64,000 bases of DNA, from positions 10,540 through 74,539 of the forward strand of contig JAFUIW010000122.1 in the NCBI GenBank assembly GCA_017473945.1, written 5' to 3'. Both the position numbers and the translations under genes were made by a program. The notes below the pieces were generated by a model. That model was not told the DNA's origin and made no database searches. It saw only the letters and a list, made by a program, of their open reading frames with translations. The first letter of the stretch is position 1. Every line of letters begins with the position of its first letter. This document shows positions 29,655 through 63,340 of this stretch, piece after piece. This DNA is from Methanobrevibacter sp. (GTDB lineage Archaea; Methanobacteriota; Methanobacteria; Methanobacteriales; Methanobacteriaceae).

Positions 29655-29663
29655 GAATTCACC

Positions 29664-31517
29664 TTAACTTAGTCCTAATGTCGCATGAGTGTTATGTCTT
29701 GCCCAGTTTGCACCCATACTTTTATAAAAACAATCCACCTGATTTTTCGTTGAATTTGAAAGAGAATAGTTTAATTTTACAATCAAACTGTCATCATGAT
29801 TTTTAATAAATCGGGTTTTCATGTAATTAACTGTCAACCATTTGGTTGGTATGTTATAATAAGTTTTATAGGAGTTACTTACTAAAACTTTTTTGCCATT
29901 ATTACTTATATCTAAAATTGCCACATAATGGTTTTTAGTGTGAAAAATTAATGCACAACCTCCTTTTTTAAGTTCATCCAATGCTGTTTTAAAAGAATTT
30001 TTATAGAAATAAGTGCAGTTGAAATTATTGCCCAGCGCTTTTATCATACCATGACATGGAGTGCCTATAACTTCCTTGGAACCAGCTTTTTTAGCCAAAT
30101 ATTTTTCAGACATGTAATTTCTTAAAACCTGACTGCAGACACTTGCTGAAGTCGGTCCACAAGTATAATCTGTATTTTGCACATCACGAACCTCAGAGTA
30201 GGTATATGATTTTCCTTTCAGGGAAACTGAAATCTTGCTTGGCCAGTACTTGTATTTGTTTGCGTTAACTATTTTCACATTGATGGCCCTTTCAATAACA
30301 TTCCATTTTTCACGTTTTACTATGTGATTGGTGTTAGGATGAGATTTTGTCTTGAAGAATGTGAATTTGGATAGTTTATTATTTAAAAACAGACAATAAC
30401 TGTCCCGTTTAATAACCTCTTTGTATTGTGTTTTTGTTAGTGTGTATGTTGCGCTTCCATCTGCCATGACATAGTTTTTAGGCATCAAATCAATGTCCGG
30501 AACACCATTTTTTAAGGGAACAGATTCATTTAACGGATCTTTTACATTTCCTTTAATCCCATTGACCTTTTTGGAAGTCCAATATTTTCCATATTTTACC
30601 GTAACTTTATATTCCTTTGCATCCAGATTCGGTTTTAAGACAATGATACCTTCAGAATCTGTTTTTTTAGTGAATTTCTTATTAGCTATTTTGATTTTAA
30701 GAGTTTTATGGGAAATATCTGAAACTGAATAATCCTTTAAATAAATCCTCAAATATCCGTTGGTAAGTAATTTGGAATTGGCAATATCAATGTTGGTGTA
30801 ATGCATCACGCGCAGGTTAAACTTGATTTGAGATGACTTGTAATAATTATTTCCACCATATTTTAAAGCAACTGAGTAAGATGCTGGTGCCAATTTTATT
30901 TTAAATCCACAACGACCATTTTTATTTGTGGTTTTAAAGTAAGTTTTTCCGTTAATTTTAAATGCTATTTTTTTATTTGGAAGAGGATTGCCTATGTTTG
31001 ATAACTCAGCGTATAAGTATTTACCCCTCACTACAAAATTAGCATGATTTGTGAGTTTTGTATCCAATTTTGAAACTTTAATATTGAATTTTTTAGAAAC
31101 GGATTTATATTGGTCATCACATGCAAATGAAACAATCAGTTTATAAGTTTTTGCAGGAAGAGATAGGTTTAAACTAGCAATTCCATTGGAATTTGTGGAT
31201 GTGGAATATTTTTTACCGTTTATCAATAGAGTCAAATTTTTAGATTTAAGCAAACTGCCAGAACTGTTTTTCAGATAAACTGTTAGAGTGTCTTTAGCCT
31301 TCAGCTTTGTTGTTTTTACACTGACAACAGGACTTGTCTTGACAACTTCAACTGTTGAATTGTCTTCAGAACTACTGGACAAATTCACATCATCAAGATT
31401 TATGCCGCCATCTGTTTCATTAATCGTTGTTTCATTCAAATCGTCAGCTGAAACAAATGATACTGTGAAGATTATTAAAAACAGCAATATTATGAAAAAA
31501 GTTATTCTATTGAACAT
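29664..31517 (-). CDS. adhesin-like surface protein with C-terminal cysteine peptidase domain (tandem paralog)
   Basis: 617 aa with the same architecture as its neighbour. DYTCGPTSASVC and ALIFHTKNHYVAILD motifs. About 55-60% identity by eye over the C-terminal 300 aa. Confidence 0.8.
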   Translation of the reverse strand: MFNRITFFIILLFLIIFTVSFVSADDLNETTINETDGGINLDDVNLSSSSEDNSTVEVVKTSPVVSVKTTKLKAKDTLTVYLKNSSGSLLKSKNLTLLINGKKYSTSTNSNGIASLNLSLPAKTYKLIVSFACDDQYKSVSKKFNIKVSKLDTKLTNHANFVVRGKYLYAELSNIGNPLPNKKIAFKINGKTYFKTTNKNGRCGFKIKLAPASYSVALKYGGNNYYKSSQIKFNLRVMHYTNIDIANSKLLTNGYLRIYLKDYSVSDISHKTLKIKIANKKFTKKTDSEGIIVLKPNLDAKEYKVTVKYGKYWTSKKVNGIKGNVKDPLNESVPLKNGVPDIDLMPKNYVMADGSATYTLTKTQYKEVIKRDSYCLFLNNKLSKFTFFKTKSHPNTNHIVKREKWNVIERAINVKIVNANKYKYWPSKISVSLKGKSYTYSEVRDVQNTDYTCGPTSASVCSQVLRNYMSEKYLAKKAGSKEVIGTPCHGMIKALGNNFNCTYFYKNSFKTALDELKKGGCALIFHTKNHYVAILDISNNGKKVLVSNSYKTYYNIPTKWLTVNYMKTRFIKNHDDSLIVKLNYSLSNSTKNQVDCFYKSMGANWARHNTHATLGLS

Positions 31518-48850: not shown

Positions 48851-50518
48851 ATGACATCATTAATAGGAAATTTTGTTGAAAGGGTTGATTTCAACTCTTA
48901 TGAAGACTTTTACGATAACTTCAAATTAACATATGAAGATGATTACAACTTCGGATTCGATGTAGTGGACAAATACGCTGAAATCGATCCTGAAAAGATA
49001 GCATTAATCTGGACAAACGATTATGATGAAGAACACATATTCACTTTTAAGGATATGAAAGAATATTCCAATAAAGCTGCAAACTTATTTAAAAAATTAG
49101 GAATTAAAAAAGGCGACCGTGTAATGCTTACCCTTAAAAACAGATATGAATTCTGGTTCTGCATGATAGCATTGCACAAAATAGGAGCAATACCTATTCC
49201 GGGAACACACATGCTGAAACTTCACGACATCGATTTCAGAATAAAAGAGGCAGATGTGAAGATGGTAGTTTCAGTGGAAGAAGATTCATTATTACCTGAT
49301 TACGAAGAAGCTGAAAAATCATTAGGCATTGACATACCAAAACTTGCAATTGAAACCGACAGGGACGGATGGATAAACTTCAATGAAGCTATAGAAAACG
49401 AAAGTCCAATATTCGAAAGGCCAACTGGTGAAGACAAAACCTATGCTGAAGAAATATCACTAATATATTTCACATCAGGAACCAGCGGACTTCCGAAAAT
49501 GGTTTCACACAAACATACCTATTCATTAGGACATATCCCTACTGCCAAATACTGGCATAATGTAGTAGAAGATGGAATCCACCACACCTCCGCAGATACC
49601 GGTTGGGGAAAAGCTGTATGGGGAAACCTTTACGGACAATGGATTGCAGGAACAGGAGTATTCATCTACGATTACGAAAGATTCAATGGATTAAAATTAC
49701 TTGAAAAGATTATCGAATATAAAGTGGACACATTCTGTGCACCTCCTACAATTTACAGATTCATAATTAAAGAAAATATAGAAGGATATGACCTTTCAAA
49801 CTTAAAATACGTTACAACTGCAGGAGAACCTTTACCTCCTGAAGTATCCGAAAAGTTCTTTGAACTTTCAGGACTTAGAATCAAAGAAGGATTCGGTCAA
49901 ACCGAAACAACTTTATCAATCGGTACATTCATCTGGCTGGATGCAAAAGTTGCTTCCATTGGTAAACCTTCCCCATTATTCAATTTGGAATTATTAGATG
50001 AAAACCACAACAAAGTGGAAATCGGAGAAGAAGGAGAACTTTGTTTCAAAATGAATGACGGACCTAATCCCGGATTATTCAAAGACTATGTGAACGATGA
50101 AGAAAAATACAAAAGGCAAATCCATCATGGATACTACCACTGTGGGGATACCGCATGGGTGGATGAAGACGGATATGTCCACTTTGTTGGAAGAAACGAC
50201 GACATCATCAAGTCTTCAGGTTACCGTATCGGACCGTATGAAGTAGAAAGTGCAGTATTGTCTCACGAGGCAGTTTCAAACTGCGCAATTACCGCTTATC
50301 CTGATGAAGTGAGAGGCCAAATCGTAAAGGCAACAATTATCTTACAACCTGGCTTTGAACCGTCAGATGCCTTGACCAAAGACATACAAAATCATGTTAA
50401 AAGAGTTACAGCTCCTTATAAATACCCAAGAATGATTGAATATGTGGATGAAATTCCAGAAACAATCAGCGGTAAAATAAGAAGAGTTGAAATCAGAGAA
50501 AACGATAATAAAAATTAA
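48851..50518 (+). CDS. AMP-forming acyl-CoA synthetase (medium/short-chain type)
   Basis: 555 aa. AMP-binding motif YFTSGTSGLPKMV, GYYHCGDTA, SGKIRR C-terminal lysine loop. Confidence 0.88.
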   Translation: MTSLIGNFVERVDFNSYEDFYDNFKLTYEDDYNFGFDVVDKYAEIDPEKIALIWTNDYDEEHIFTFKDMKEYSNKAANLFKKLGIKKGDRVMLTLKNRYEFWFCMIALHKIGAIPIPGTHMLKLHDIDFRIKEADVKMVVSVEEDSLLPDYEEAEKSLGIDIPKLAIETDRDGWINFNEAIENESPIFERPTGEDKTYAEEISLIYFTSGTSGLPKMVSHKHTYSLGHIPTAKYWHNVVEDGIHHTSADTGWGKAVWGNLYGQWIAGTGVFIYDYERFNGLKLLEKIIEYKVDTFCAPPTIYRFIIKENIEGYDLSNLKYVTTAGEPLPPEVSEKFFELSGLRIKEGFGQTETTLSIGTFIWLDAKVASIGKPSPLFNLELLDENHNKVEIGEEGELCFKMNDGPNPGLFKDYVNDEEKYKRQIHHGYYHCGDTAWVDEDGYVHFVGRNDDIIKSSGYRIGPYEVESAVLSHEAVSNCAITAYPDEVRGQIVKATIILQPGFEPSDALTKDIQNHVKRVTAPYKYPRMIEYVDEIPETISGKIRRVEIRENDNKN

Positions 50519-50530
50519 TCAGATGATATA

Positions 50531-50815
50531 ATGACAGAAGAGATATCTTATCCAGTTATCAATAAGGAGATTTGCAAAGGCTGTATGAGATGTATAGTCG
50601 GATGTCCTCAAAATGCAATATTACTATCAGAAGAAATGAACAACGCAGGATATCAATTTGCATATTATAGTGGAAATGGCTGTACCGGATGTAAAGACTG
50701 TTACTTTACATGCCCAGAGCCATTAGGATTAGAAGTACATCAAGTGAAAAATATTGTTAATGATTCAGTAGCAAAAATGATTAAAGCTAAAGCAGCTAAT
50801 CAAGGGGGAAACTAA
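50531..50815 (+). CDS. vorC: 2-oxoacid:ferredoxin oxidoreductase delta (2x[4Fe-4S] ferredoxin) subunit
   Basis: 94 aa. CKGCMRCIVGCP and CTGCKDCYFTCP motifs. Abuts the alpha subunit gene. The gene symbol is tentative. Confidence 0.7.
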   Translation: MTEEISYPVINKEICKGCMRCIVGCPQNAILLSEEMNNAGYQFAYYSGNGCTGCKDCYFTCPEPLGLEVHQVKNIVNDSVAKMIKAKAANQGGN

Positions 50816-51928
50816 ATGAGTAATCAAATGGTGAAAGGAAATACTGCTGTTATCATTGGTGCAATGTATGCGGGATGCGATTGTTTCTTTGGATACCCAA
50901 TCACACCTGCAAGTGAAATATTGCACGAAGCTTCAAAATATTTCCCAATGGTTGGAAGAAACTTTGTACAGGCTGAAAGTGAAGAAGCATCAATCAATAT
51001 GGTTTACGGTGCATCAGGTACAGGCCACAGGGTCATGACCGCATCATCAGGGCCAGGTATAAGCTTAATGCAGGAAGGATTCACATACCTTGCAGGTGCT
51101 GAACTGCCTGCAGTTATTGTTGACATTATGAGAGCAGGACCCGGACTTGGAAACATCGGACCCGAACAAGGAGACTACAATCAGATTGTCAAAGGCGGAG
51201 GTCACGGTAACTACAGAAATATAGTCCTGGCTCCAAACAGCGTTCAGGAAATGTGTGATTTGACCATGAAAGCATTTGAACTTGCAGACAAATGGAGAAA
51301 TCCTGTTGTTGTTTTGGCTGACGGTACACTAGGCCAGATGGCAGAACCTGTTGAGTTTCCAAAAGAAGCAATCAAACCTGAAATTGACGAATCATGGGCA
51401 GTAAGAGGAAATAAGGATACCATGGGAAACCTCATTACATCAATCTTCAATGACTTCAATGATTTGGAGGATTTCAACTTCAAGCTTCAGGAAAAATATG
51501 CTAAAATCGATGCTGAAGAGGTTATTGTTGACGAATATCAAGTTGACGATGCAGACATTGTCTTGGTTTCATATGGTATCAGCAGCCGTATCGCAAGATC
51601 TGCTGTTGACAAGAGCCGTGAAAAAGGCCTGAAAGTTGGACTCTTAAGACCTGTCACACTATCACCTTTCCCAACTGAAAGAATCAAGGAATTGGCTGAT
51701 AAGGGTGTTGAATTCATATCAGTTGAAATGAGTAACGGTCAGCTCCTTGCTGATGTTCAGTTTGCAGCATTAAGAAGAGACGGAACCCACCTTGTAAACA
51801 GGATGGGCGGAAATCTCATTGAACTTAAACATGTGCTTGCAAAAATTTATGAAATTGCAGGTCTGGACGAGAAAATAGATACTTCAAAAAGAAGTGAAGA
51901 AAAGGCTAGCCCGAATATAATTGATTAA
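50816..51928 (+). CDS. vorB: 2-oxoacid:ferredoxin oxidoreductase alpha subunit
   Basis: 370 aa. [10 protein letters not shown] and [10 protein letters not shown] motifs of the OFOR alpha subunit. Substrate specificity is not determinable from sequence alone. Confidence 0.8.
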
Positions 51929-51940
51929 GGATGTGGAAAA

Positions 51941-53380
51941 ATGAGTGAACAATTAAATAAAGATTATGAAGAACAAATACGTAGAAATCCACAATCCCTT
52001 TTAGAAGAGTATCCTAGAAAAGGAACCAATATTCAATCCACTCATTACTGTGCAGGTTGTGGACATGGTATCATACACAAATTGATTGCAGAATGTATGG
52101 ATGAGCTTGGAATCCAGGAAAGATGCGTTATGATTTCACCAGTGGGATGCTCAGTATATGCATACTTCTACTTCAACTGCGGAAACTTCCAGACCGCTCA
52201 CGGAAGAGCGCCTGCAGTGGCTACAGGCATTTCAAGAGCAGAAGACAATGCTATTGTTATGAGCTATCAGGGAGATGGGGACTTAGCCTCCATCGGTTTA
52301 AACGAAACATTACAAGCTGCAAACCGTGGTGAAAAGATTGCAGTATTTTTCGTGAACAACACCGTTTACGGTATGACCGGCGGACAGATGGCTCCAACAA
52401 CATTGATTGGTGAAAAAACAGTTACATGTCAAACTGGAAGAGACCCTGATTATGCAGGACACCCTACACACATGTGTGAGTTAATCAACACCCTAAAAGC
52501 ACCTGTATTCATTGAAAGGGTATCTCTTGCAAATCCATTGAAAATCAGACTTGCAAAATATGCAATCAAACAGGCACTTACAGTTCAAAAAGAAGGAAAA
52601 GGATATTCATTCGTTGAAATATTATCCCCTTGCCCTACAAACCTAAAACAGGATGTTAAACGTGCACAGGAATTCATTGAAAAACACATGGAAAAAGAGT
52701 TCCCTGTCAAAAACTTCAGAAACAACCTCTACAAAAAAGACCCTGTTGTCAGACCTGAAAGTGACTTTACCACAGAATCATTGGATAAAATATTCAATGT
52801 AAACAGAGGCGAAGGTTCAGGATATGTCGATGAGGACATTGAACCTGTAAGCATAAAAGTTTCCGGATTTGGTGGTCAGGGAGTCTTGAGTGCTGGCCTT
52901 ACAATTGCTGAAGCAGCATGTGCTGAGGGAAAACACGTTTCATGGTATCCTAGTTACGGACCTGAACAGAGAGGAGGAAAATCAAACTGTTCAGTAGTTA
53001 TTTCAAATGAAACCATTGGAACTCCTGTTGTTGATGACATTGACATTCTTATCGCATTGAACAAACCTTCACTTGAACAGTTCTCACAGGACGTTAAAGA
53101 AGGAGGAGTAATACTTTATGATTCACACATTGGTGAGTTCGAAACCGACAGGGACATTAAGGTCATTGCAATGCCTTGTGTCGATATTGCAGAGGAACAC
53201 GGCAATGTCAGAACTGCAAACACTGCGCTTTTAGGTGCATTGACTGAATTGACTGATGTCTTAAAACGTGAATCTTATGAAAACGCTATTCGTGAAATGT
53301 TTGCTGCCAAACCTAAAGTAATCGATGTAAACATCGATGTTTTGGAAGCTGGAGCAGAATGGATTAAAAACAACTCATAG
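51941..53380 (+). CDS. vorA: 2-oxoacid:ferredoxin oxidoreductase fused beta (TPP-binding) and gamma subunit
   Basis: 479 aa. The N-terminal half carries HYCAGCGHG and GDGD TPP motifs. The C-terminal half carries the gamma-type [11 protein letters not shown]...YGPEQRGG motif. This fusion is as described for the three-subunit VOR of Methanothermobacter. Confidence 0.75.
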
Positions 53381-53389
53381 TGTGATTTA

Positions 53390-54700
53390 ATGACATATAA
53401 AGAAAATGCTAACAAATATATAGAAAATTACGGCTTAAGTATAGGAGATACAATCAAAGTAAACAAAAAAGACATCTCCTATAAAGGAATTTTACTTGAC
53501 AGACCAGAAGATGCCGATGACGGATATCTTGTTATCAAATTATCAAGCGGATATAACATTGGAGTGGCTATTGAAGGCACTACAGCAGAGCTTATTGAAA
53601 AAGGAGACAAACCTAAAATAGGATATGATGCTGAAGAGATTCCAACAGATCCAAACAAGCAGAACATCTCAATCGTGTCTACCGGCGGAACAGTATCTTC
53701 TGTCATCGATTACAGAACAGGTGCAGTGCATCCTAAATTTACCGCTTCAGACCTTGTAAAGGCAAATCCAGAACTCTTGGATTATGCAAATTACAACGTA
53801 AAGGATTTATATAATATATTAAGTGAAGACATGAAGCCTGAATACTGGGTTAAAGCAGCAGAAGAAATAGCCAATGACATTTCAGACGGTGCTGACGGAG
53901 TAGTGATAGCTCATGGTACAGATACCATGCACTATACTTCAGCCGCATTGAGCTTCATGATTAAAACTCCAGTTCCAATTGTTATAACAGGAGCTCAAAG
54001 AAGTTCAGACAGACCTTCAAGTGACGCCAACATCAACCTGATTGATTCCGTTGTTGCTGCAAAATCAGACATTGCAGAGGTCTGTGTATGTATGCACGGA
54101 AGCTTGAATGACAAATACAATTACCTGCACAAAGGAACAAAAGTCAGAAAGATGCATACATCAAGAAGAGATACCTTCAGAAGCATCAACGCTCAGCCAA
54201 TAGCTAAGATTGAAAATAAACAGGTTGAGATCAATCCAGACTATGCATACACCAAACGTGGAGCCAATGAACTTGAACTGAACACATCCATTGAAGAGAA
54301 AGTAGGATTCATCAAAAGTTTCCCAGGCATTTCTGAAGAGTTCATTGAATATCACATCGACAAAGGTTACAAAGGACTTGTCATTGAGGGAACCGGTCTA
54401 GGACATGTACCAAACGAAATGATTGATTCATTTAGAAGAGCTCAAGATGAGAAAATCCCGGTAATCATGACTTCACAATGTCTTTACGGTAGAGTTAACA
54501 TGAACGTTTACTCAACAGGACGTAACATTCTGGATGCCGGAGTTATATCCGGCCGTGACATGACCCCTGAAACCACATACGTGAAATTATGCTGGGCATT
54601 AGGTCAAAGTGACGATTACAATAAAGTAAAAGAGATTATGCAAACCAATATTGCTGGAGAATTCTCTGAAAAATCCTCAATCAAGGATTTCTTAAACTAG
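53390..54700 (+). CDS. gatD: Glu-tRNA(Gln) amidotransferase subunit D
   Basis: 436 aa. Asparaginase-like core STGGTV...HGTDTM. Confidence 0.92.
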
Positions 54701-54709
54701 GTGGTTAAT

Positions 54710-56575
54710 ATGGATTACGAAAAATTAGGATTAAAAATGGGACTTGAGATTCACCAACAATTAAACAGCCAGCACAAACTGTTCTGCCCATGCAAAACAG
54801 AGCTTGTGGATGATGATTACTCAGAGCTTGTTCAAAGAAAATTAAGGCCAACACAGTCCGAACTTGGTGAAATCGACCGTGCAGCTTTACAGGAATCCCT
54901 AAGAGGATTGAACTTCAAGTATGAAAACTTTGAAAACCACACCTGCCTTGTTGAAAACGATGACGAACCACCTCACAGCCTGAATGAGGAAGCCTTAGAC
55001 ATCTGTATCACAATCGCTTGTCTTATGAACATGCACATTGTCGACGAATTCCACACAATGCGTAAACAGGTTATTGACGGAAGTAACACCGGAGGGTTCC
55101 AGAGGACAGGTATGGTTGCAACCGACGGATATCTTGACACACCATACGGAAAGGTTGTCATTGAAAGTCTTGGCCTTGAAGAAGACGCAGCAAGAAGAGT
55201 TGAAACCAAAGACGGATTTACCGAATTTAGATTAGACAGATTAGGTATACCATTAGCTGAAATAACAACAGATCCTTCAATGCACCATCCGGACCAGGTA
55301 AGGGAAGTTGCATACATGCTAGGTCAGATATTGAGAAGTACCAATGTTAAAAGAGGTCTTGGTACAATCAGACAGGACCTGAACATTTCCATTGCTGAAG
55401 GCGCACGTGTTGAAATTAAAGGTGTTCAGGACCTTGACTTAATGGCCGAAATCGTAAACCGTGAAGTAACAAGACAATTAGAATTAATTGATATTAAAAA
55501 ACAATTACAATCAAGAAACGCTGAAGTTCTAGAAGAGATTCATGACCTTGATGAGTTATTTACTGATACTGAATCAAAAATATTGAAATCAGCTGAAACA
55601 ATCAAAGCAGTTGTTTTAAAAGGATTTAACGGACAAATTGGTCGTGAAGTGCAACCTGGAAGAAGGTTCGGTACTGAAATTGCGAGTTATGCTAAAAAAC
55701 GTGGAGTTTCAGGAATATTCCATTCAGATGAATTGCCGGCTTATGGAATAACCCAAGAGGAAGTTGACAAGGTAAACGACTTTTTAAACATTGGCGAGGA
55801 AGATGCATTCATCATTGTAGCTCACGATGAGGATATTGCGATTTCCGCACTGGAAGAAGTCAAAAGAAGAGCAAACCTAGGTTTAGAAGGTGTTGTTGAA
55901 GAGACAAGAAAAGCTCTTGATGACGGCAACACAGAATACATGAGACCTCTTCCAACTGCAAACAGGATGTATCTTGAAACAGACATTCCATTATTCAAGA
56001 TCACTTCAGACAGAGTCGAGCCTATAGCTAACAACTTGCCTGAATTGCCTGACGTAAAACAGGCAAGGATTATTGAAGAATACAAGTTAAGTGAAGACCT
56101 GGCAACACAGCTTGTCAAAAGGCAGGAAGCTGACGTGTTTGAGGCAATTTTGGCTGACGTTGATGTTGATGCAACACCAGTCGCTTCACTTCTTGCTTAT
56201 GACCTTAGAGAAATCAAAAGGGAAGGTCATGACATTAACGTGTTAACCTTAGATCACTTTAAAGGAATTTTTACATTGCTTGCTGAAGGAAAAATAGCTA
56301 AGGACAGTATTCGTAAATTGGCTGTTGAAACCATCAACGCACCTGATAGCGATATTGCCGAAATCGCTGAGAAAAACAATCTTGTAATGATGAACGATGA
56401 AGAGGTTCAAAAGATTATTGCTGAAATTGTTTCAAACAATGAAGGAATGGTTAAAGAGCGTCAAATGGGTGCAATGGGTCCTTTGATGGGAATGTGCATG
56501 AAACAACTTAAAGGAAAAGCAGACGGAGGACTTGTAAATAAAATAGTCCGTGAAGAAATTCAAAAATTTATATAA
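54710..56575 (+). CDS. gatE: Glu-tRNA(Gln) amidotransferase subunit E
   Basis: [18 protein letters not shown]... from ATG 54710, with an AGGTGG SD inside the gatD stop region. The track ORF begins at GTG 54701. Confidence 0.92.
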
Positions 56576-56611
56576 GGAAACTCACACGAGTTTCCATTTA
56601 AACTCTTTTTT
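56576..56611 (+). terminator. gatE terminator hairpin plus T-tract
   Basis: GGAAACTC-ACAC-GAGTTTCC immediately after the TAA stop, then CTCTTTTTT. Confidence 0.7.
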
Positions 56612-56629
56612 AATACTGTAAAAAATATT

Positions 56630-56645
56630 TTTAGGAATACCTAAA
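56630..56645. promoter_or_regulatory. palindromic box TTTAGGAATACCTAAA (DtxR/IdeR-like iron-box candidate)
   Basis: Perfect 6-N4-6 inverted repeat, 11 nt upstream of the TATA at 56657. Confidence 0.5.
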
Positions 56646-56656
56646 AAATAGAAAAC

Positions 56657-56663
56657 TTTATAT
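56657..56663 (+). promoter_or_regulatory. TATA box candidate (TTTATAT) with A-rich BRE-like flank
   Basis: AAAACTTTATATGC. The geometry is conserved with copy 2 at 60412. Confidence 0.45.
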
Positions 56664-56687
56664 GCTACCTACAACAACATTATAATT

Positions 56688-56905
56688 GGTGATGAAATTT
56701 AGGTTAGCCTAAAATTCAAATCACATTATTAGTCAAATAAACACAAAAAACTCTCCAAAATTAGAAAAGTGTTGAATTAGATTTTCACAATTTCTCTAAT
56801 TTGATACAAGTCGTTGGAAAATTAAAAAAATCTGCCAAAAAATAATTTTCCTCAAAACATTCGGTGTTTAATTCGTCGGTTAAACACCCATTATCTCTCT
56901 TTTTT
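56688..56905 (+). ncRNA. candidate small non-coding RNA, copy 1 (predicted ends approximate)
   Basis: No ATG on the plus strand from 56714 to 56905. About 95 nt are nearly identical to 60513-60609. Ends in hairpin GGTGTTTAA-N8-TTAAACACC (56863-56888) plus a T6 tract (56900-56905). Confidence 0.35.
56698..56713. promoter_or_regulatory. palindromic box TTTAGGTTAGCCTAAA (DtxR/IdeR-like iron-box candidate)
   Basis: Perfect 6-N4-6 inverted repeat, 34 nt downstream of the TATA. This is the expected +5 to +25 region of a transcript. Confidence 0.5.
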
Positions 56906-57069
56906 AAAAAATGGATTTAAATTTAACTAATCACACTATTCTGATTACATTTCTAACCAACGATATTTTTAACTACATCCTTAGAATATTTAACTAAAAA
57001 AACTTATTTTAGACAAAATATATAGATTCCATTACTATTTGAAAAAAAGATGAATTTCTGGAGAACATC

Positions 57070-57207
57070 ATGATCGAGAAAGAATGCTACAACTGCAAAC
57101 ACATGGAATTTGATATCAGCCTTTGCACTCAATACTACTGCAGATTACACGAAAAATTAACTAAAATGGACGATACATGTGATGACTGGAGCGAATCATC
57201 AAATTAA
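57070..57207 (+). CDS. small Cys-rich protein (45 aa), below the ORF-track size cut-off
   Basis: Own translation: MIEKECYNCKHMEFDISLCTQYYCRLHEKLTKMDDTCDDWSESSN. GGAGAA SD 5 nt upstream of the ATG. Five Cys including one CxxC. Confidence 0.45.
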   Translation: MIEKECYNCKHMEFDISLCTQYYCRLHEKLTKMDDTCDDWSESSN

Positions 57208-57284
57208 GTTACACCTATTGATATCCCAATATAATTTGACTATGGTACAAATCCCGTGCACCTAATTAAAGTGAAAATCAGAGC

Positions 57285-57926
57285 TTATTCAACATCAAAA
57301 CCCTTTTGCTCCATACTGTTTTTAAGAATCTCCATAGCCTTAATTGTATCAGGCCCTGAAACCCTCTTAATCATACGATTGTTTTCATTAAACCTTCCAA
57401 CAAAATAATCCTGCTGTTCTTCACTTACAAGGTCAAGTCTAGTATAGTTTGTAAGGCATTCCAGAAGTGCAAACAGACCACGGTTTAAAGCCTTTGCACA
57501 TGGATTGTTTTTGACGATTTCTACAACATCACTGCTTATTATATAAGCTTCCCCATTTGATGTGACGTGGTCTTTAATAGGATCCATTTTTCTAATGTCT
57601 GTAACATCACAAATGACATATGCTTCTGCATTTTTCAATATTGCAATGTCCTCATCATCTGTAAACTCTTCAATATCCAGGTTTCCTATTGTTGAATTTG
57701 CAAAATTTATAGGGTCAAAAGTAATGTTTACAACATATTTTCGTGTTTCCATAATGTTTTTAAGAGTCTGTGTGCCGACAAATAGTCTGCATCCAAGTTT
57801 GTCCTTGCCTTTGCATACAATTCCTATCGGCGCTGCATTTTTTACACCACTTTTGCTCATGGTAGTGTAAATTCCTTCATATTTCTGTCCTTCTTCAATT
57901 CCTATATCAGTCAAATCCATAGACAT
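57285..57926 (-). CDS. DUF447-like (FMN-binding split-barrel-like) protein, tentative
   Basis: The ORF runs to TTG 57971, but ATG 57926 is preceded by a GGTGA SD. EGIYTT...KNAAPIGIV resembles the DUF447 N-terminal signature. Confidence 0.45.
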   Translation of the reverse strand: MSMDLTDIGIEEGQKYEGIYTTMSKSGVKNAAPIGIVCKGKDKLGCRLFVGTQTLKNIMETRKYVVNITFDPINFANSTIGNLDIEEFTDDEDIAILKNAEAYVICDVTDIRKMDPIKDHVTSNGEAYIISSDVVEIVKNNPCAKALNRGLFALLECLTNYTRLDLVSEEQQDYFVGRFNENNRMIKRVSGPDTIKAMEILKNSMEQKGFDVE

Positions 57927-58212
57927 TTTATCACCAGAATAATTTACCATTTCAATGATAATATCTATCAATCAATCTAATTAAAAATTTAGGTTAACAT
58001 CCCACATTTTGTTTGAAACTTGAATTTGAAAAGCAGTTAATGTACATGGGAAACTGAAAAACAAATTGGTTCTTAAAAACATTGCAGTTAATGAAATATA
58101 CATATAATTAAATCATGATTAAATACATTTCTTTAAATATAATTAACAGCAAAATAAATTATTTGATAGGCGATACCTATTGAGAAAAATAAATGGAATG
58201 CTGAAGTTGAAG

Positions 58213-60231
58213 CTAACCAAATCCAGCCAATAGCCCAATGTTATAAATTAAAAATGAAACTATATATGCAGTCACAATAGTGATGGCGCACATCGCCAAA
58301 GCCCATCTGTAACCGTTTGTTTCATGCTTGATTGCACCGATTGTACCGAAACATGGAGTATATAGCAAAGTGAACGCCATAAATGCATATGCAGACAATG
58401 GAGTAAATGTATCATGTATCAGATGAGTTATGCCTCTTTCATCGCCCTCTTCCATACCTCCAAGAGTACCGAAAGTTGATACGATTACTTCCTTAGCCGC
58501 CAATCCAGCAATGATGGACACAGCAGCCTGCCATGTGCCGAATCCCAATGGGGCGAAAATCGGAGCGATAAACTGACCGATCATTCCAAGGATACTGTCT
58601 GCAGATCCGTATTTTACACCCAGCGGGAAGATGCTTAATGCCCACAATACTATGGAACATGCAAGAATTACGGTTCCCGCCTTTCTTATGAATCCCTTAA
58701 CCTTTTCCCATGTATGCAGAAGCACACCTTTAAGGGAAGGAACCTTATATGACGGAAGCTCCATTACAAATGGAGTTGACAGTCCCTTAAACAATATCCT
58801 TTTAAGAATTGCCGCAACAATAAGTGCCACCAAGATTCCTAAAAGATAGATTGACAACAATATTAATGCATTATATTCTTTAAAGAATGCTGCAATGAAA
58901 ATTGCATAAATCGGAAGTCTTGCAGTACATGACATGAATGGAACAAGCATCATAGCAAGTTTACGGTCGTTTTCACTTTCCAAAACTCTTGTTGCCATAA
59001 TGGCAGGCACACCACAACCGAATCCTAAAATCATTGGGATAAATGCCTTGCCATGAAGGCCGACCAACTTATGCATGAATATGTCCATTGTAAATGCTGC
59101 CCTAGCAAGATATCCGCAATCCTCCAGAATGCTTAAGAATAAAAATATTATAACGATGATTGGCAGGAAAGAAATAACTCCTCCCACACCTCCGATGACC
59201 GCATCACATAAAAATGATGCAACATAATAATTCGGAATGAAGCTTGCCACAAATCCGGAAAGCATTGAAAAACCCTGTTCGATTAGCTCCTGAAAAGGGG
59301 ATCCCACAGCATAGGTTACTTGAAACATTATCAACATTACAATTACAAAAATAGGAATCGCCAGTATCCTGTTTGTAATAATTTTATCTATTTTATCACT
59401 GATGCTTTCACCTTCAACGGCAGGCCTTTCAACAGCTTCCGCCATCAGACCGTCGATGAAAGCATATCTTGCACCTGCAACAACCTCTTCCACACCTTCA
59501 CCGTAGATATCGTAAAGGTGTCTTGAAACCTTGTCGGTTTCTATGAAAATTGATGAGCTTTCAGATGACTTTTGAACTTTCTCAATGACAATTGTGTCCT
59601 TTTCAAGCAGTTTGATTGCGGTCCAGAGTGACGGCACATTGAGCAGGTTTTCATCTTTTTCAATCAATTTCTGCATATCTTCCAAGTGTTCCTTTAACTC
59701 TGCACCATATGCCAGTTTTTTACTTGAATCAACAGGTTTTGCCGCTTGCCTTTCCACAATGGTGAAGAGTTCATCGATTCCTTCACCAGTTTTGGCATTG
59801 ATTTCAACAACAGGAAATCCCAAAAGTTCACTCATCAAATCAATATCTATTATGTGACCTCTTCTTTTAGCATAATCGTTCATGTTAAGCGCCATGACCA
59901 GGTTTGCCCCAAGTTCCATCATCTGAACCGTGAGGTACAAGTTACGTTCAAGATTGGACGCATCGACCACATTGACAATAACGTCTGAATCATCATCGAC
60001 GATGAAGTCCCTTGACACTATCTCTTCCATAGTGTGGGCGCTCAATGCATAGTTTCCCGGCAAATCGATAATGTCATAATCATATTTACCATGTGAAAAG
60101 TGACCTTTTGCCTGTTCAACCGTTTTTCCAGGCCAGTTTCCAACATGCTGGTGCATACCAGTCAATTCGTTGAAAACCGTTGTTTTTCCAACGTTTGGAT
60201 TGCCCGCCAATCCAACTATCAATTTCACCAT
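58213..60231 (-). CDS. feoB: ferrous iron transporter B
   Basis: 672 aa. N-terminal G domain GNPNVGKTTVFNELTG, DLPG, NMND, followed by a polytopic permease domain. No feoA-like ORF is adjacent. Confidence 0.93.
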   Translation of the reverse strand: MVKLIVGLAGNPNVGKTTVFNELTGMHQHVGNWPGKTVEQAKGHFSHGKYDYDIIDLPGNYALSAHTMEEIVSRDFIVDDDSDVIVNVVDASNLERNLYLTVQMMELGANLVMALNMNDYAKRRGHIIDIDLMSELLGFPVVEINAKTGEGIDELFTIVERQAAKPVDSSKKLAYGAELKEHLEDMQKLIEKDENLLNVPSLWTAIKLLEKDTIVIEKVQKSSESSSIFIETDKVSRHLYDIYGEGVEEVVAGARYAFIDGLMAEAVERPAVEGESISDKIDKIITNRILAIPIFVIVMLIMFQVTYAVGSPFQELIEQGFSMLSGFVASFIPNYYVASFLCDAVIGGVGGVISFLPIIVIIFLFLSILEDCGYLARAAFTMDIFMHKLVGLHGKAFIPMILGFGCGVPAIMATRVLESENDRKLAMMLVPFMSCTARLPIYAIFIAAFFKEYNALILLSIYLLGILVALIVAAILKRILFKGLSTPFVMELPSYKVPSLKGVLLHTWEKVKGFIRKAGTVILACSIVLWALSIFPLGVKYGSADSILGMIGQFIAPIFAPLGFGTWQAAVSIIAGLAAKEVIVSTFGTLGGMEEGDERGITHLIHDTFTPLSAYAFMAFTLLYTPCFGTIGAIKHETNGYRWALAMCAITIVTAYIVSFLIYNIGLLAGFG

Positions 60232-60383
60232 TATAGCTCTCCAACTTATTAAATTTTATATTAAAGATTACAATCGTTTTGATTTTCTAAATCTTTCCTT
60301 AAAAAAATTAGTGTTCCTCAATTATGTTTATATTTTCTTCTTATTTTATTTAAATTATAGATATGAAGGTTGAAGGATTTTAA

Positions 60384-60399
60384 TTTAGGTTAGCCTAAA
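60384..60399. promoter_or_regulatory. palindromic box TTTAGGTTAGCCTAAA (iron-box candidate) on the feoB side of a shared TATA
   Basis: Identical to the box at 56698. Lies 12 nt from the TATA at 60412-60419, so it would sit near the TSS of a minus-strand (feoB) transcript. Confidence 0.5.
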
Positions 60400-60411
60400 T
60401 TTTTAGAAAGG

Positions 60412-60419
60412 TTTATATA
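60412..60419. promoter_or_regulatory. TATA box candidate TTTATATA (near-palindromic, possibly bidirectional)
   Basis: AGGTTTATATACT, flanked by the two boxes. Confidence 0.45.
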
Positions 60420-60442
60420 CTATGAAAACATACTTTAATACA

Positions 60443-60667
60443 AGTGACATATATTTAGGTAAACCTAAATATTCACTTTAAACAAGACATATTATTAGTC
60501 AATAAAACAAAACTCTCCAAAATTAGAAAAGTGTTGAATTAGATTTTTCACAATTTCTCTAATTTGATACAAGTCGTTGGAAAATTAAAAAAATCTGCCA
60601 AACAAAATTAATTTTCCTCAAAGCTGGTGTTTAATACGTCGGTTAAACACCAATTATCTCTCTTTTT
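60443..60667 (+). ncRNA. candidate small non-coding RNA, copy 2 (predicted ends approximate)
   Basis: No ATG from 60470 to 60667. The conserved core is shared with copy 1, apart from a T4/T5 indel. Hairpin GGTGTTTAA-N8-TTAAACACC (60626-60651) plus a T5 tract (60663-60667). Confidence 0.35.
60454..60469. promoter_or_regulatory. palindromic box TTTAGGTAAACCTAAA (iron-box candidate)
   Basis: Perfect 6-N4-6 inverted repeat, 34 nt downstream of the TATA. This is the same spacing as in copy 1. Confidence 0.5.
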
Positions 60668-60699
60668 GAAAATAATTTCCAAAAAAATTATTCAATACT

Positions 60700-60740
60700 A
60701 AAAATAAAAAAAGTAAATAACTGCCGAAGCAAGTTATTTT
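60700..60740 (-). terminator. strong hairpin (UUCG loop) plus T-tract terminator of ALP 60734..63340
   Basis: Minus strand AAATAACTTGC-TTCG-GCAGTTATTT, overlapping the TAA stop and followed by ACTTTTTTTATTTTT. Confidence 0.7.
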
Positions 60741-63340
60741 TTAATTTTAACAGTCTTTTTAACAGTATCTTTCAGGTAGGTAGCCTGATAGGTAACTTTC
60801 TTACCAACCTTCAGCTTTTTCAAGACACTTGAAGTAATGGTTGCCTTTGCAACACCTTTCTTATCTGTTTTTGCCTTGTAGGTTTTACCATTGAACTTGA
60901 AGGTTACTGTTTTCTTGGTTAAGTATTTGCCGTTTATTTTACCCAAAGTAGCTTGCAATACCAGTTTTTTAGCTGATTTTTTTACAGCTACTGACTTCAA
61001 GGTTACCAAATGATTAACAGTTATTGTTTTTGTTACTGATTTACCAAGTGCGGAAATGGTTATCTTGTAGGTTCCTGGAGCCTGTGTTACTTTAAACTTA
61101 GCGATACCATTTTTTGCTGTTAGTGTTTTTGATATTCCACCAGTTATTTGAACTGCACCATTTACAAGTTTTCCATCAGTTCTGGTAACTTTAATTATAT
61201 AATATGAACCTGAAGAATAAACAACCTTAACATTGGATGCAGTAATAACTGTAGCTACTGCAGGAGCCGCTTTAACTAAAGTTCCATCTCTTGCAAATGA
61301 TAAATATTTGTCATCTCCAGAGTATGTTATTGTGAACGGATAACTACCATAACTTAAATCAGGCATTTTAACAGTAATATTACCATTCTCAACAGCAAAA
61401 TCATATGAGTTACCATTGACATTTAGTGTAACAGTACCGGTTGCATCATTAGGCAAATTAATTGGAACTAAACTGCCACATGGAATTTTACCGAAAGTAG
61501 ATGGGAAATTAATAGCTATTTTAGGATTTTCTGTCTTATTATCAGTATTGGTTTTAATTACATTAAAAGTACCATTGGCTGAGAATGGGGAGTACTGTGC
61601 ATCTCCTGAGTAAGATATTACATATGGATAATCGCCATCATCTAAGTCAGGCAATCTAATTTTAGCAACACCGTTTACCATTTCTGATTTATAATCAGCG
61701 CCATTAATTGTTAGTGTAACGGTACCAGTAGCATCGCTAGGCAAATTAACCACAGCAGTTGGGTCGTCCAACAACCCATCAGAAGAAGGAATGATAAGTA
61801 CGGAACTGTTTGTAACATAAGTATAATTTGCTTTTTCATAAACTATCAGTTTGAATGAAGATCTTGAAGATTCATATTTTGAAGTTCCATCATAAACGAC
61901 AGAAATTGTATGAACTCCAGATTTTGATGGAGTGTAAGTCAATTCTGCAATACTCTCCTTAACATCTGCCTGACCTATTTTGGCATTATCATCAAAGAAA
62001 GTGACCGCACCTTCGTTAATTGTTTTGACACTGCTCACTGCTACAATTAAAGTTACTTTCTGACCTACAGTTGCATTTAAATCATGACCTCCCACACTAG
62101 TTGGGGCTTTGTTGACATGGATTTTTGCGGTTTTTGTTGCAGCATCATGATTTGCATCCTTAACTGTTGAAACAGTCAAAGTATGATTACCCATATCCAA
62201 GTTATTAGGAATCATTATTGTATTTCCAACCACACTAATATCTTTTCCATCAATATTGGCAGTGAACTTGACAGTTCCATCACTGTTTAATACAATATTC
62301 AAAGAACTTCCATATGTTAAATTGACATCCTTGACATTGCTTAAATAATCCGCTTTGTTGATATTTATGGTAGCTGTTTTGGTTACAGGATTGTGATTGG
62401 AATCCGGAACTGTTGTAACGGATAAAGTATGAGTGCCCACATTCAAGCCATAAGGAATCATTATTGTATTGTCTATTACCTCAACCTCTTTTCCATCGAT
62501 TTTTGCTGTGAATTCAGTAACGCCTTCGGTTGATACTGTGATATTGGAAGACATTCCATATTCAAAGTTAAAACTATCCTTAATGCCAATTAAAGAATCG
62601 ACTTTATTTACAGTTATTGTAGCTGTTTTAGTAGTAGCTACATGATTATCATCTGGAACTGTTGTAACAGATAAAGTATAATTTCCCACATTCAAAAGAG
62701 GAATTGAAATCACATTTCCACTAACATTAACTTCCTTGCCGTCAATTTCAGCAATGATTTTGGTTGCTCCGCTTGTATTAATTTTTATTGTAGAAGAATT
62801 ACCATAATTTAAAGTAATATCCTTAAGTTCCCTTAAAGATTCAGCCTTGGTAACTGTTATTGTTGCTGTTTTTGTAATCGGATTGTGATCATTATCAGGA
62901 ATGGTTGTGACTGATAATTTATGAGTACCGAGATTCAACTGAGGAATTGTAATTGTAAATCCATCAACATCAATAGGATTATCATCAATTTTAGCAGTAA
63001 TCCCTGTTGCTCCATTAGCTTGAACAGTAATACTTCCGATACTGCCATACTCCATATCAAAATCTCCAACGTTACTCAAAGATGAATCCTCCTTACTTAC
63101 AGACATATCATCATCATTTGAATTTAATGCATCATTCTCATCAGAAGACATAGCAACTGAATCCTCTGAGTTTATTTCATCATCTGATGCAGATAACGTA
63201 TCTGTATCTGATAAATTTAATTCTTGATTAATTTCATCACTTGCAACTACCGTTTGATTCACATCACCAGCACAAACGCTTGCAATGGTGAATAAACAGA
63301 TAATAAAGCAAATGAATATGAATAATTTTTTACATCCCAT
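60734..63340 (-). CDS. adhesin-like surface protein with tandem Ig-like repeats and Lys-rich C-terminal module
   Basis: 868 aa. Signal peptide MGCKKLFIFICFIICLFTIASVCA. Acidic S/D-rich linker. Four repeats of about 85 aa ending TKTATITVxKA. Two repeats with the ..LP.DATGTVTL..NG core (VVNLPSDATGTVTLTING, INLPNDATGTVTLNVNG). C-terminus VTFKFNGKTYKAKTDKKGVAKA...VKIKK. Confidence 0.85.
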   Translation of the reverse strand: MGCKKLFIFICFIICLFTIASVCAGDVNQTVVASDEINQELNLSDTDTLSASDDEINSEDSVAMSSDENDALNSNDDDMSVSKEDSSLSNVGDFDMEYGSIGSITVQANGATGITAKIDDNPIDVDGFTITIPQLNLGTHKLSVTTIPDNDHNPITKTATITVTKAESLRELKDITLNYGNSSTIKINTSGATKIIAEIDGKEVNVSGNVISIPLLNVGNYTLSVTTVPDDNHVATTKTATITVNKVDSLIGIKDSFNFEYGMSSNITVSTEGVTEFTAKIDGKEVEVIDNTIMIPYGLNVGTHTLSVTTVPDSNHNPVTKTATININKADYLSNVKDVNLTYGSSLNIVLNSDGTVKFTANIDGKDISVVGNTIMIPNNLDMGNHTLTVSTVKDANHDAATKTAKIHVNKAPTSVGGHDLNATVGQKVTLIVAVSSVKTINEGAVTFFDDNAKIGQADVKESIAELTYTPSKSGVHTISVVYDGTSKYESSRSSFKLIVYEKANYTYVTNSSVLIIPSSDGLLDDPTAVVNLPSDATGTVTLTINGADYKSEMVNGVAKIRLPDLDDGDYPYVISYSGDAQYSPFSANGTFNVIKTNTDNKTENPKIAINFPSTFGKIPCGSLVPINLPNDATGTVTLNVNGNSYDFAVENGNITVKMPDLSYGSYPFTITYSGDDKYLSFARDGTLVKAAPAVATVITASNVKVVYSSGSYYIIKVTRTDGKLVNGAVQITGGISKTLTAKNGIAKFKVTQAPGTYKITISALGKSVTKTITVNHLVTLKSVAVKKSAKKLVLQATLGKINGKYLTKKTVTFKFNGKTYKAKTDKKGVAKATITSSVLKKLKVGKKVTYQATYLKDTVKKTVKIKK
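62095..63055 (-). repeat. four in-frame tandem repeats of about 85 codons inside the ALP gene
   Basis: Repeated blocks: ..HKLSVTTIPDNDHNPITKTATITVTKA / ..YTLSVTTVPDDNHVATTKTATITVNKV / ..HTLSVTTVPDSNHNPVTKTATININKA / ..HTLTVSTVKDANHDAATKTAKIHVNKA. Confidence 0.7.

Follow-up and report, generated by a model that had tools for sequence, protein, structure and literature searches.

The stretch of Methanobrevibacter sp. DNA analyzed here, 64,000 nucleotides (nt) of contig JAFUIW010000122.1 (assembly GCA_017473945.1, positions 10,540 to 74,539) and hereafter called the window, contains two copies of a candidate small RNA (sRNA) gene of ~215 nt, both on the plus strand, which lie on either side of feoB and thus bracket it. 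The best explanation of these elements is that each copy is an independent gene of a ~215-nt non-coding RNA, belonging to a family that has not been described previously and is found only in Methanobrevibacter. We are highly confident that this is a real, selected and stand-alone structured RNA family lying behind an operator of the feoB type. That its members are iron-starvation sRNAs acting in trans is the complete model towards which we lean, with decidedly more reserve.

Each copy has its own promoter, in which two TTTAGGnnnnCCTAAA palindromes flank the TATA box. The TTAGGnnnnCCTAA motif occurs four times in the 64 kb, always at these two promoters, whereas 0.04 occurrences would be expected and none of 100 shuffled sequences reaches four. 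In copy 1, the upstream operator box TTTAGGAATACCTAAA (56630..56645, unstranded) has a position conserved in homologs, the TATA box TTTATATG (56657..56664, + strand) is preceded by an A-rich tAGAAAac resembling a B recognition element, and the downstream operator box TTTAGGTTAGCCTAAA (56698..56713, unstranded) falls at about +10 to +25 of the predicted transcript, where it doubles as the 5' hairpin H1. In copy 2, the upstream box is TTTAGGTTAGCCTAAA (60384..60399, unstranded) and the TATA box is TTTATATA (60412..60419, +), a sequence that is nearly invariant in an alignment of 34 sequences; the spacing between the two boxes is 68-71 bp across loci. An earlier sequence-only reading of this DNA had pointed out the two copies, the TATA box, a palindrome, a stretch devoid of ATG, a 9-bp hairpin and a T6 run, and all of them were found at or near the positions that it gave. 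It correctly recognized the promoter palindrome at 56698-56713 and overlooked the second operator upstream of each TATA box (56630-45 and 60384-99). Its placement of the 5' end at the palindrome has to be revised, being ~25 nt too far downstream: since a conserved GTGA lies at the archaeal start-site distance from TTTATATA, transcription most likely starts there, at ~56689 in copy 1 and ~60444 in copy 2, and a start ~25 nt earlier than first assumed puts the downstream palindrome inside the RNA.

From this predicted start, copy 1 extends over 56689..56905 (+, ~217 nt) to a T6 run at 56900-56905, and copy 2 over 60444..60667 (+, ~224 nt), with a T-run reaching 60667. After H1, copy 1 presents on the plus strand an unpaired CU-rich motif, ACUCUCCAAAA (56750..56760; family consensus aaUCUCCAAAA), hairpin H2 (56769..56807), with arms GUGUUGAAUUAGA and UCUAAUUUGAUAC enclosing the loop UUUUCACAAUUUC, hairpin H3 (56816..56851), with arms GGAAAAUUA and UAAUUUUCC and a loop containing a conserved CUGCC, and hairpin H4 (56863-56888), which reads GGTGTTTAA / ttcgtcgg / TTAAACACC in the DNA and GGUGUUUAA / UUCGUCGG / UUAAACACC in the RNA and is followed by a AUUAUCUCUCU tail and the U6 terminator (56863..56905 as a whole). 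The same elements are found in copy 2 (second box and H1, 60454-60469; CU-rich motif, 60512-60522; H2, 60531-60570; H3, 60579-60617; H4, 60626-60651). The two copies can be aligned end to end, promoter included, and differ in their flanks; their ~95-nt core, beginning at 56750 and 60512, respectively, is identical save for the single T4/T5 indel that had already been noticed. The folding z-scores relative to shuffled sequence are -3.5 for copy 1 and -4.4 for copy 2 on the plus strand, compared with -2.2 on the minus strand of copy 1, the only copy folded on both strands.

The family was delineated on syntenic loci fetched from genome assemblies by means of FeoB and numbered with the prefix L. 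In these, blastn identified homologs at about 20 loci of Methanobrevibacter species, most often in the arrangement of copy 2, divergent from feoB and 200-300 nt upstream of it, and feoB anchors the locus across species; the nearest relatives of the window are uncultured Methanobrevibacter of the M. millerae group, whose FeoB proteins are 95%, 92% and 88% identical. A covariance model (R1) built from an alignment of 30 units (A2) matches only the two copies in the window (56689-56907, 157 bits, E = 7e-27; 60444-60670, 160 bits, E = 2e-27), retrieves 31 full-length copies from 19 Methanobrevibacter genome loci and the window, and has no match in bacterial FeoB loci. When metagenomes were scanned with a degenerate core pattern, 45 rumen and human-gut loci and 60 further matches were added, which brings the family to 85 copies, 75 of which are distinct, from Methanobrevibacter genomes and rumen and gut metagenomes. 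The duplication that had been noted in the window is thus a recurrent trait, and M. intestini WWM1085, like related human-gut contigs, has three copies in tandem, all of them with a two-box promoter of their own. The suspicion that no equivalent had been described also held in the sources consulted: a scan of the whole window with Rfam 15 gave no hits at gathering score, scans by E-value returned chance-level matches only (E up to 10 over 56400-61000; E up to 1 for three homolog loci), and no iron-regulated sRNA of Methanobrevibacter or other archaea was found in the full-text literature searched, outside of which lies a comparative study of archaeal DtxR regulons.

Four hairpins, H1 to H4, are supported by counts made on the 75 distinct sequences, and the 31 genome copies give the same picture: standard pairs occupy 95.7% of the cells, against 90.5% in shuffles and 33-53% in slid controls, and changes on both sides of a pair are seen in 18 of the 35 pairs, where shuffles give 8.0±1.3 (0 of 500) and slid controls 2-8. 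H1, corresponding to the downstream operator, combines a nearly invariant stem with four free central nucleotides, which is the signature of a protein-binding DNA site. H2 (12 pairs, 98.4% paired, compensatory changes in 4 of 12) is rich in G-U pairs that would become A-C mismatches on the opposite strand and so fit only the plus strand, and its ACAAUU loop is conserved in at least 90% of the sequences. In H3, which was found in 29 of 30 homologs folded singly, six of the seven pairs show compensatory changes, with arm variants such as GGAAAAU/AUUUUCC, GGGAAAU/AUUUCCC, CAUGGAAAC/GUUUCCAUG and CAUGAAA/UUUCAUG. The stem of H4 is almost invariant throughout the family, and 35 of 67 members have a CU-rich loop there. 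Outside the stems, conservation is found in AUUAUUAGUCAAAUAA, (A/C)UCUCCAAAA, the H2 loop ACAAUU and the H3 loop CUGCC. Among these, the CU-rich (A/C)UCUCCAAAA, in which the sequence-only reading had seen an anti-Shine-Dalgarno-like (anti-SD-like) motif, is the best-conserved unpaired stretch, and CTCCAAAA, in the corresponding region of copy 1, is at least 90% conserved among the distinct sequences. A possible additional AU hairpin, AUUAUU-AGUC-AAUAAU, is weakly supported, with one covarying pair only.

No open reading frame (ORF) is conserved in frame among the homologs on either strand, and the region 56714-56905 of copy 1 contains no ATG and has stops in all three plus-strand frames. A small-protein gene was rejected, as the longest sense ORF has a median length of 16 amino acids (aa), neither the positions nor the sequences of such ORFs are conserved, and indels occur within the core. 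Archaeal C/D-box sRNAs are recognized by a C box (RUGAUGA) near the 5' end, a D box (CUGA) near the 3' end and a length of ~50-70 nt. This class was rejected as well: GUGAUGA begins copy 1 only, with GUGACAU in many homologs, no 3' CUGA is conserved, the RNA measures ~215 nt and matches to Rfam snoRNAs are at chance level. Between the window and its two closest relatives (L001 and L004), identity amounts to 93-98% in the promoter and 92-95% in the RNA, falls to 57-78% in the spacer towards feoB and to 47-50% just beyond the T-run, where conservation drops sharply.

The surroundings of the copies are also those of an independent unit, non-coding and with its own terminator. In the family as a whole, 39 of the 85 copies are divergent from a feoB. 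On their downstream side, 25 face a convergent gene, often ending 1-10 nt past the terminator, 15 are followed by the next tandem copy, 31 have nothing within 150 nt, seven a type-B fragment (a relative described below), six a same-strand gene within 350 nt, and one lies at a contig end. A leader would be expected upstream of the same-strand gene that it controls, and no such consistent placement is seen. The unit covaries, lacks a conserved ORF, ends in a terminator, is mostly followed by a convergent gene or by none and is conserved within sharp bounds; together these traits argue for a stand-alone non-coding RNA gene, as had been proposed. In ~30 loci, the feoB/sRNA region is adjoined by genes for a secreted Ig-like protein of ~160 aa and a MarR-family regulator (e.g., L017:907-1395 (+) and L017:382-852 (-)), neither of which is present in the window; the sRNA terminator may be bidirectional, only 1-10 nt lying between it and the end of the secreted-protein gene.

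The link to iron comes from the operator. Only TTTAGG-N4-CCTAAA, a 6-4-6 palindrome with a free center, is conserved across the 75 sequences. The 805 kb of Methanobrevibacter loci contain 119 such boxes, which cluster at feoB even in species without the RNA, compared with a single one in 333 kb of other loci. The box precedes feoB paralogs, feoA (PF04023, E = 1e-21) and a gene for a 2x[4Fe-4S] ferredoxin of 55-59 aa, and in both window copies two such boxes bracket the TATA box and the predicted start. Because the same box precedes these genes, control of the sRNA promoter by iron is well supported by the logic of the predicted regulon. Many other species carry a feoB box 70-110 nt upstream of feoB; in the window, no third, feoB-specific box is found at up to two mismatches, and 60384-60399, being the only box between feoB and copy 2, is probably shared by the two.

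Further boxes were observed at these loci. Pairs of feoB paralogs are arranged in tandem (L002:12149, L007:4626, L021:7811) or flank the sRNA (L022:6324, L061:5294), each paralog with its own box ~80-110 nt upstream of the start codon. A single box separates the divergent genes of the 55-59-aa ferredoxin and of a ~120-aa membrane protein (L007:12727, L015:17937, L020:17941, L042:16581, L044:12421), a pair that would add to the predicted regulon. A box downstream of feoB (L029:12085-12566 and L037:2667-3124; also L024:12200-12710 and L023:3593-4101) precedes feoA (77 aa; seen in L029 and L037) and a gene for a 61-69-aa, four-Cys, zinc-ribbon-like protein (MxCRMCGYEFDE...CPNCG); the products may be accessory components of Feo.

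A relative of the sRNA was detected through weak hits of the R1 model. This element, type B, is found at L024:8307-8792 (-), L027:4593-5091 (+) and L047:158-622 (-), and also in L011, L013, L014, L023, L039 and L043. It shares with the sRNA the two-box promoter, the stem of hairpin 2 (UUAUUAAAUUAG / CUAAUUUAAUA), a similar CUCC-containing 5' stretch and the neighborhood, and differs from it in having another H2 loop, another second hairpin and a continuation into an ORF of ~35 aa, while the sRNA has H3, H4 and the terminator and no ORF. The encoded peptide is Cys-rich (CC...FFFGC(C/N)C; e.g., MGVRPSCCEAPKEETSKVKKNIKKVFNFFFGCCKNKK) and has no Pfam match; its gene is often followed by that of a DUF4012 membrane protein, occurs near feoB also in Methanobacteriaceae loci lacking the sRNA (L032-L034), and is not present in the window. 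One type-B locus, L023 (CAVDAS010000004.1), is labeled as a Bacteroidaceae bin; with its feoB of the Methanobrevibacter type (69% identical), its two full sRNA copies and its type-B/peptide unit, the contig is probably mis-binned. The simplest reading of the promoter and hairpin 2 common to both elements is that the sRNA derives from an mRNA leader: the promoter and leader of the iron-box gene for the Cys-rich micropeptide were probably duplicated and gave rise to the family.

In the proposed mechanism, when iron is plentiful an iron-loaded repressor occupying both boxes would block the TATA-binding protein (TBP), transcription factor B (TFB) and RNA polymerase at a promoter whose start would lie ~25 nt downstream of a strong archaeal TATA box, with operators upstream and over +10 to +25. 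When iron is scarce, the RNA would be made together with the Feo uptake system. The distribution of the boxes argues well for both the repression by an iron-loaded regulator and the co-induction with Feo at low iron. The predicted RNA would consist of the 5' hairpin, i.e., the transcribed operator, the unpaired (A/C)UCUCCAAAA, two internal hairpins with the loops ACAAUU and CUGCC, the 3' hairpin and the oligo-U terminator. Its CU-rich, anti-SD-like stretches would pair in trans with the ribosome-binding regions of mRNAs, adjusting their translation or stability at low iron, and the resulting role would resemble that of RyhB, PrrF and IsrR, reached by an unrelated RNA. This last step, trans-acting base pairing, is weakly hinted at by the target scans, which covered the window and the feoB loci of related species with gene starts as called. 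CUCUCCAA is perfectly complementary over 8 nt to TTGGAGAG, the ribosome-binding site (RBS) of the window feoB, and the feoB start region ranks first for the CU-rich motif in 6 of 14 usable loci and second of 55 in the window; when six conserved motifs and the whole RNA were compared with 57 start regions of the window, this was the only match that stood out, and it is generic for Shine-Dalgarno sequences.

A series of observations weighs against this model. The transcript, its ends and its response to iron are all predicted. The target prediction is not significant: the species compared are related to one another, the gene starts are putative, the CU-rich motif is generically anti-SD-like, a GGAGA-type RBS is present in 6 of the 57 window genes, and scans of the 57 start regions with the other conserved motifs stayed at chance level. 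The feoB match would imply repression of feoB during iron starvation, which is physiologically odd, and the CUCCUCC loop of other clades is missing from the copies of the window clade. The invariant H4 stem and loops could equally mean recognition by a protein. In a minority of loci the RNA is followed on its own strand by a type-B fragment and the peptide and DUF4012 genes, and at L027 by feoB itself, at a distance of 159 nt. Finally, the 6-4-6 architecture of the box differs from that of the 19-bp DtxR/IdeR box, and a tblastn search with a Corynebacterium diphtheriae DtxR sequence gave no hit in the window or in the Methanobrevibacter loci, which were covered for ±10 kb around feoB.

The conservation of the RNA could have another cause, namely that an iron-controlled structured RNA binds or sequesters a protein (an RNA-binding regulator, an Lsm/SmAP protein, a ribosomal protein or a translation factor) or a ligand through its invariant loops and 3' stem, without acting by base pairing. 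The invariant H4 stem and loops make this a serious rival, albeit an unlikely one: the H4 stem GGUGUUUAA/UUAAACACC and the loops ACAAUU and CUGCC are conserved beyond what pairing needs, no convincing mRNA target was found, and multiple and tandem copies are a feature of sponge-type RNAs. However, no partner protein is consistently encoded alongside, the unpaired CU-rich stretch resembles a pairing seed, and conservation of loops is equally expected of seed regions.

Less probable still is that the element is a cis-acting leader or attenuator, in which the 3' hairpin would be a conditional terminator and an upstream AACAC the anti-terminator gating read-through. Such a device could build on the fact that the type-B relative is a genuine 5' leader of the Cys-rich peptide gene, and in L015, L016, L018 and L020 a type-B 3' fragment and, beyond it, the DUF4012 gene come after the RNA, with a short Cys-rich peptide ORF between the two read only in L018; the position of the RNA before feoB in L027 points in the same direction. 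AACAC, which 30 of 69 members have just upstream of H4, can pair with the 5' arm of that hairpin in a possible alternative structure, but over half of the family lacks it, which speaks against the anti-terminator idea; of the window copies, copy 1 (56853-56862) carries AACA alone, a shorter form counted separately (6/69), and copy 2 carries neither. Moreover, the six copies with a same-strand gene and the seven with a type-B fragment contrast with the 25 facing convergent genes and the 15 followed by a complete tandem copy with its own promoter, so that the earlier expectation of a gene rather than an invariable 5' untranslated region is borne out. In the window itself, copy 2 faces a convergent gene of 868 aa and the small ORF after copy 1 has a TATA-like sequence of its own and no box. 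A role in cis may nevertheless exist in the minority of loci with same-strand followers.

We consider it comparably improbable that the promoter senses another metal, Mn or Zn, or a different signal altogether, which would place the stand-alone RNA in another stress circuit. The doubt arises from the regulator, which is putative. DtxR-family and other archaeal metalloregulators include Mn and Zn sensors, and a MarR-family gene conserved beside the locus in many species is a candidate alternative for the box-binding protein. On the other side stands the composition of the box regulon (feoB paralogs, feoA and the 4Fe-4S ferredoxin), and no Mn or Zn transporter was seen beside a box. Of the sequence-only proposal of an iron-box promoter under a DtxR-like repressor, the iron box is supported, through its presence at those genes, and the DtxR-like repressor stays putative, given the 6-4-6 box and the lack of a DtxR homolog in the window and near feoB, the DtxR query having matched bacterial loci only. 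The conserved box does not have the DtxR/IdeR architecture, an interrupted palindrome of 19 bp; the first 14 nt of what we take to be the DtxR/IdeR consensus, TTAGGTTAGCCTAACCTAA, agree with the two TTAGGTTAGCCTAA boxes of the window (56699 and 60385), and this match probably prompted the label. As for a decaying relic, in which the promoter and leader of the peptide gene were duplicated, the ORF was lost and no separate function remains, it could account for the promoter and hairpin 2 common to type-B leaders, but it is disfavored and very improbable given 75 distinct sequences in many species with compensatory substitutions and sharp conservation boundaries, H3 and H4 that are specific to the family and not found in type B, and window copies that keep an identical 95-nt core despite diverged flanks.

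As an iron-responsive sRNA family, the elements would form a circuit analogous to those of known iron sRNAs, built from an unrelated RNA with archaeal promoter architecture. Like the Fur-repressed RyhB of Enterobacteria and PrrF1/PrrF2 of Pseudomonas, they are stand-alone, have their own terminator, carry an iron-uptake operator over the promoter and lie beside iron-acquisition genes, and they share with PrrF1/PrrF2 the duplicated or tandem copies. Unlike RyhB and PrrF, they show no homology of sequence or structure to them (no Rfam hit), measure ~215 nt rather than ~90-150 nt, and use an archaeal TATA/TFB promoter with two operators and a regulator that is not Fur. With IsrR of Staphylococcus, FsrA of Bacillus and MrsI of Mycobacterium they have in common C- or CU-rich unpaired motifs suited to pairing with Shine-Dalgarno sequences and a predicted control by a metal-dependent repressor, MrsI being the precedent for a DtxR-family regulator (IdeR) driving such an sRNA; in contrast, their sequences are unrelated to these and belong to another domain of life, the box is 6-4-6 rather than the 19-bp IdeR/DtxR type, and the repressor is putative here. 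Among archaea, sRNA154, sRNA162 and sRNA41 of Methanosarcina mazei and SHOxi of Haloferax are likewise intergenic, structured and linked to stress, and pair with mRNAs, in some cases at RBSs (PMC3510493, PMC8583180). They respond, however, to nitrogen or oxidative stress, have no sequence relation to the present family, and none is controlled by an iron box in the literature searched.

The remaining features of the window concern the neighborhood of the two copies. Copy 1 is preceded by gatD and gatE (53390-56575, +). Starting 165 nt downstream of it, a 45-aa Cys-rich ORF (MIEKECYNCKHMEFDISLCTQYYCRLHEKLTKMDDTCDDWSESSN; 57070-57207, +), the small ORF mentioned above, has a GGAGA-type RBS and no Pfam match, and is found again, 84% conserved, at this position in L001 and L004. 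It is followed on the minus strand by a DUF447 gene (57285-57971) and by feoB (58213..60231; 672 aa, start at 60231), whose product has the Pfam domains FeoB_N, Gate, FeoB_C and FeoB_Cyto and from which copy 2 is divergent. The 868-aa gene convergent with copy 2 (60734-63340) is Big_3 adhesin-like and contains four tandem repeats of ~246 bp (62095-62938). Farther away, two adjacent paralogous genes of 610 and 617 aa (28045-30314) are 71-76% identical over parts of their length. An operon at 48851-53380 (+) encodes an AMP-binding acyl-CoA synthetase, a 4Fe-4S ferredoxin-like subunit, a POR_N protein and TPP/POR-gamma subunits, that is, a 2-oxoacid:ferredoxin oxidoreductase system, an Fe-S enzyme of the type that an iron-sparing RNA might target; no significant complementarity between the sRNA and this operon was found.

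Methanogens are packed with Fe-S enzymes and, to our knowledge, nothing is known of post-transcriptional iron control in them. Carriers of the family described here are the dominant methanogens of two habitats in which iron is contested, the rumen and the human gut. For archaea, the family is a good candidate to be the first regulatory RNA described as responding to iron. The claim in its fullest form, a first archaeal family of iron-responsive riboregulators, present in multiple copies in rumen and human-gut Methanobrevibacter, co-induced with Feo, equipped with anti-SD seeds and born from the leader of a Cys-rich micropeptide mRNA, is put forward tentatively, as a possibility that we would not yet call probable. 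What the family offers is a defined RNA with a predicted structure, a two-operator archaeal promoter and a small predicted regulon (feoA, feoB, ferredoxin and the Cys-rich micropeptide), by which an archaeal counterpart of the bacterial iron-sparing response becomes testable. If its derivation from the micropeptide leader is true, it would also be an example of the de novo origin of an sRNA from an mRNA leader and a clean case in which to study such evolution.

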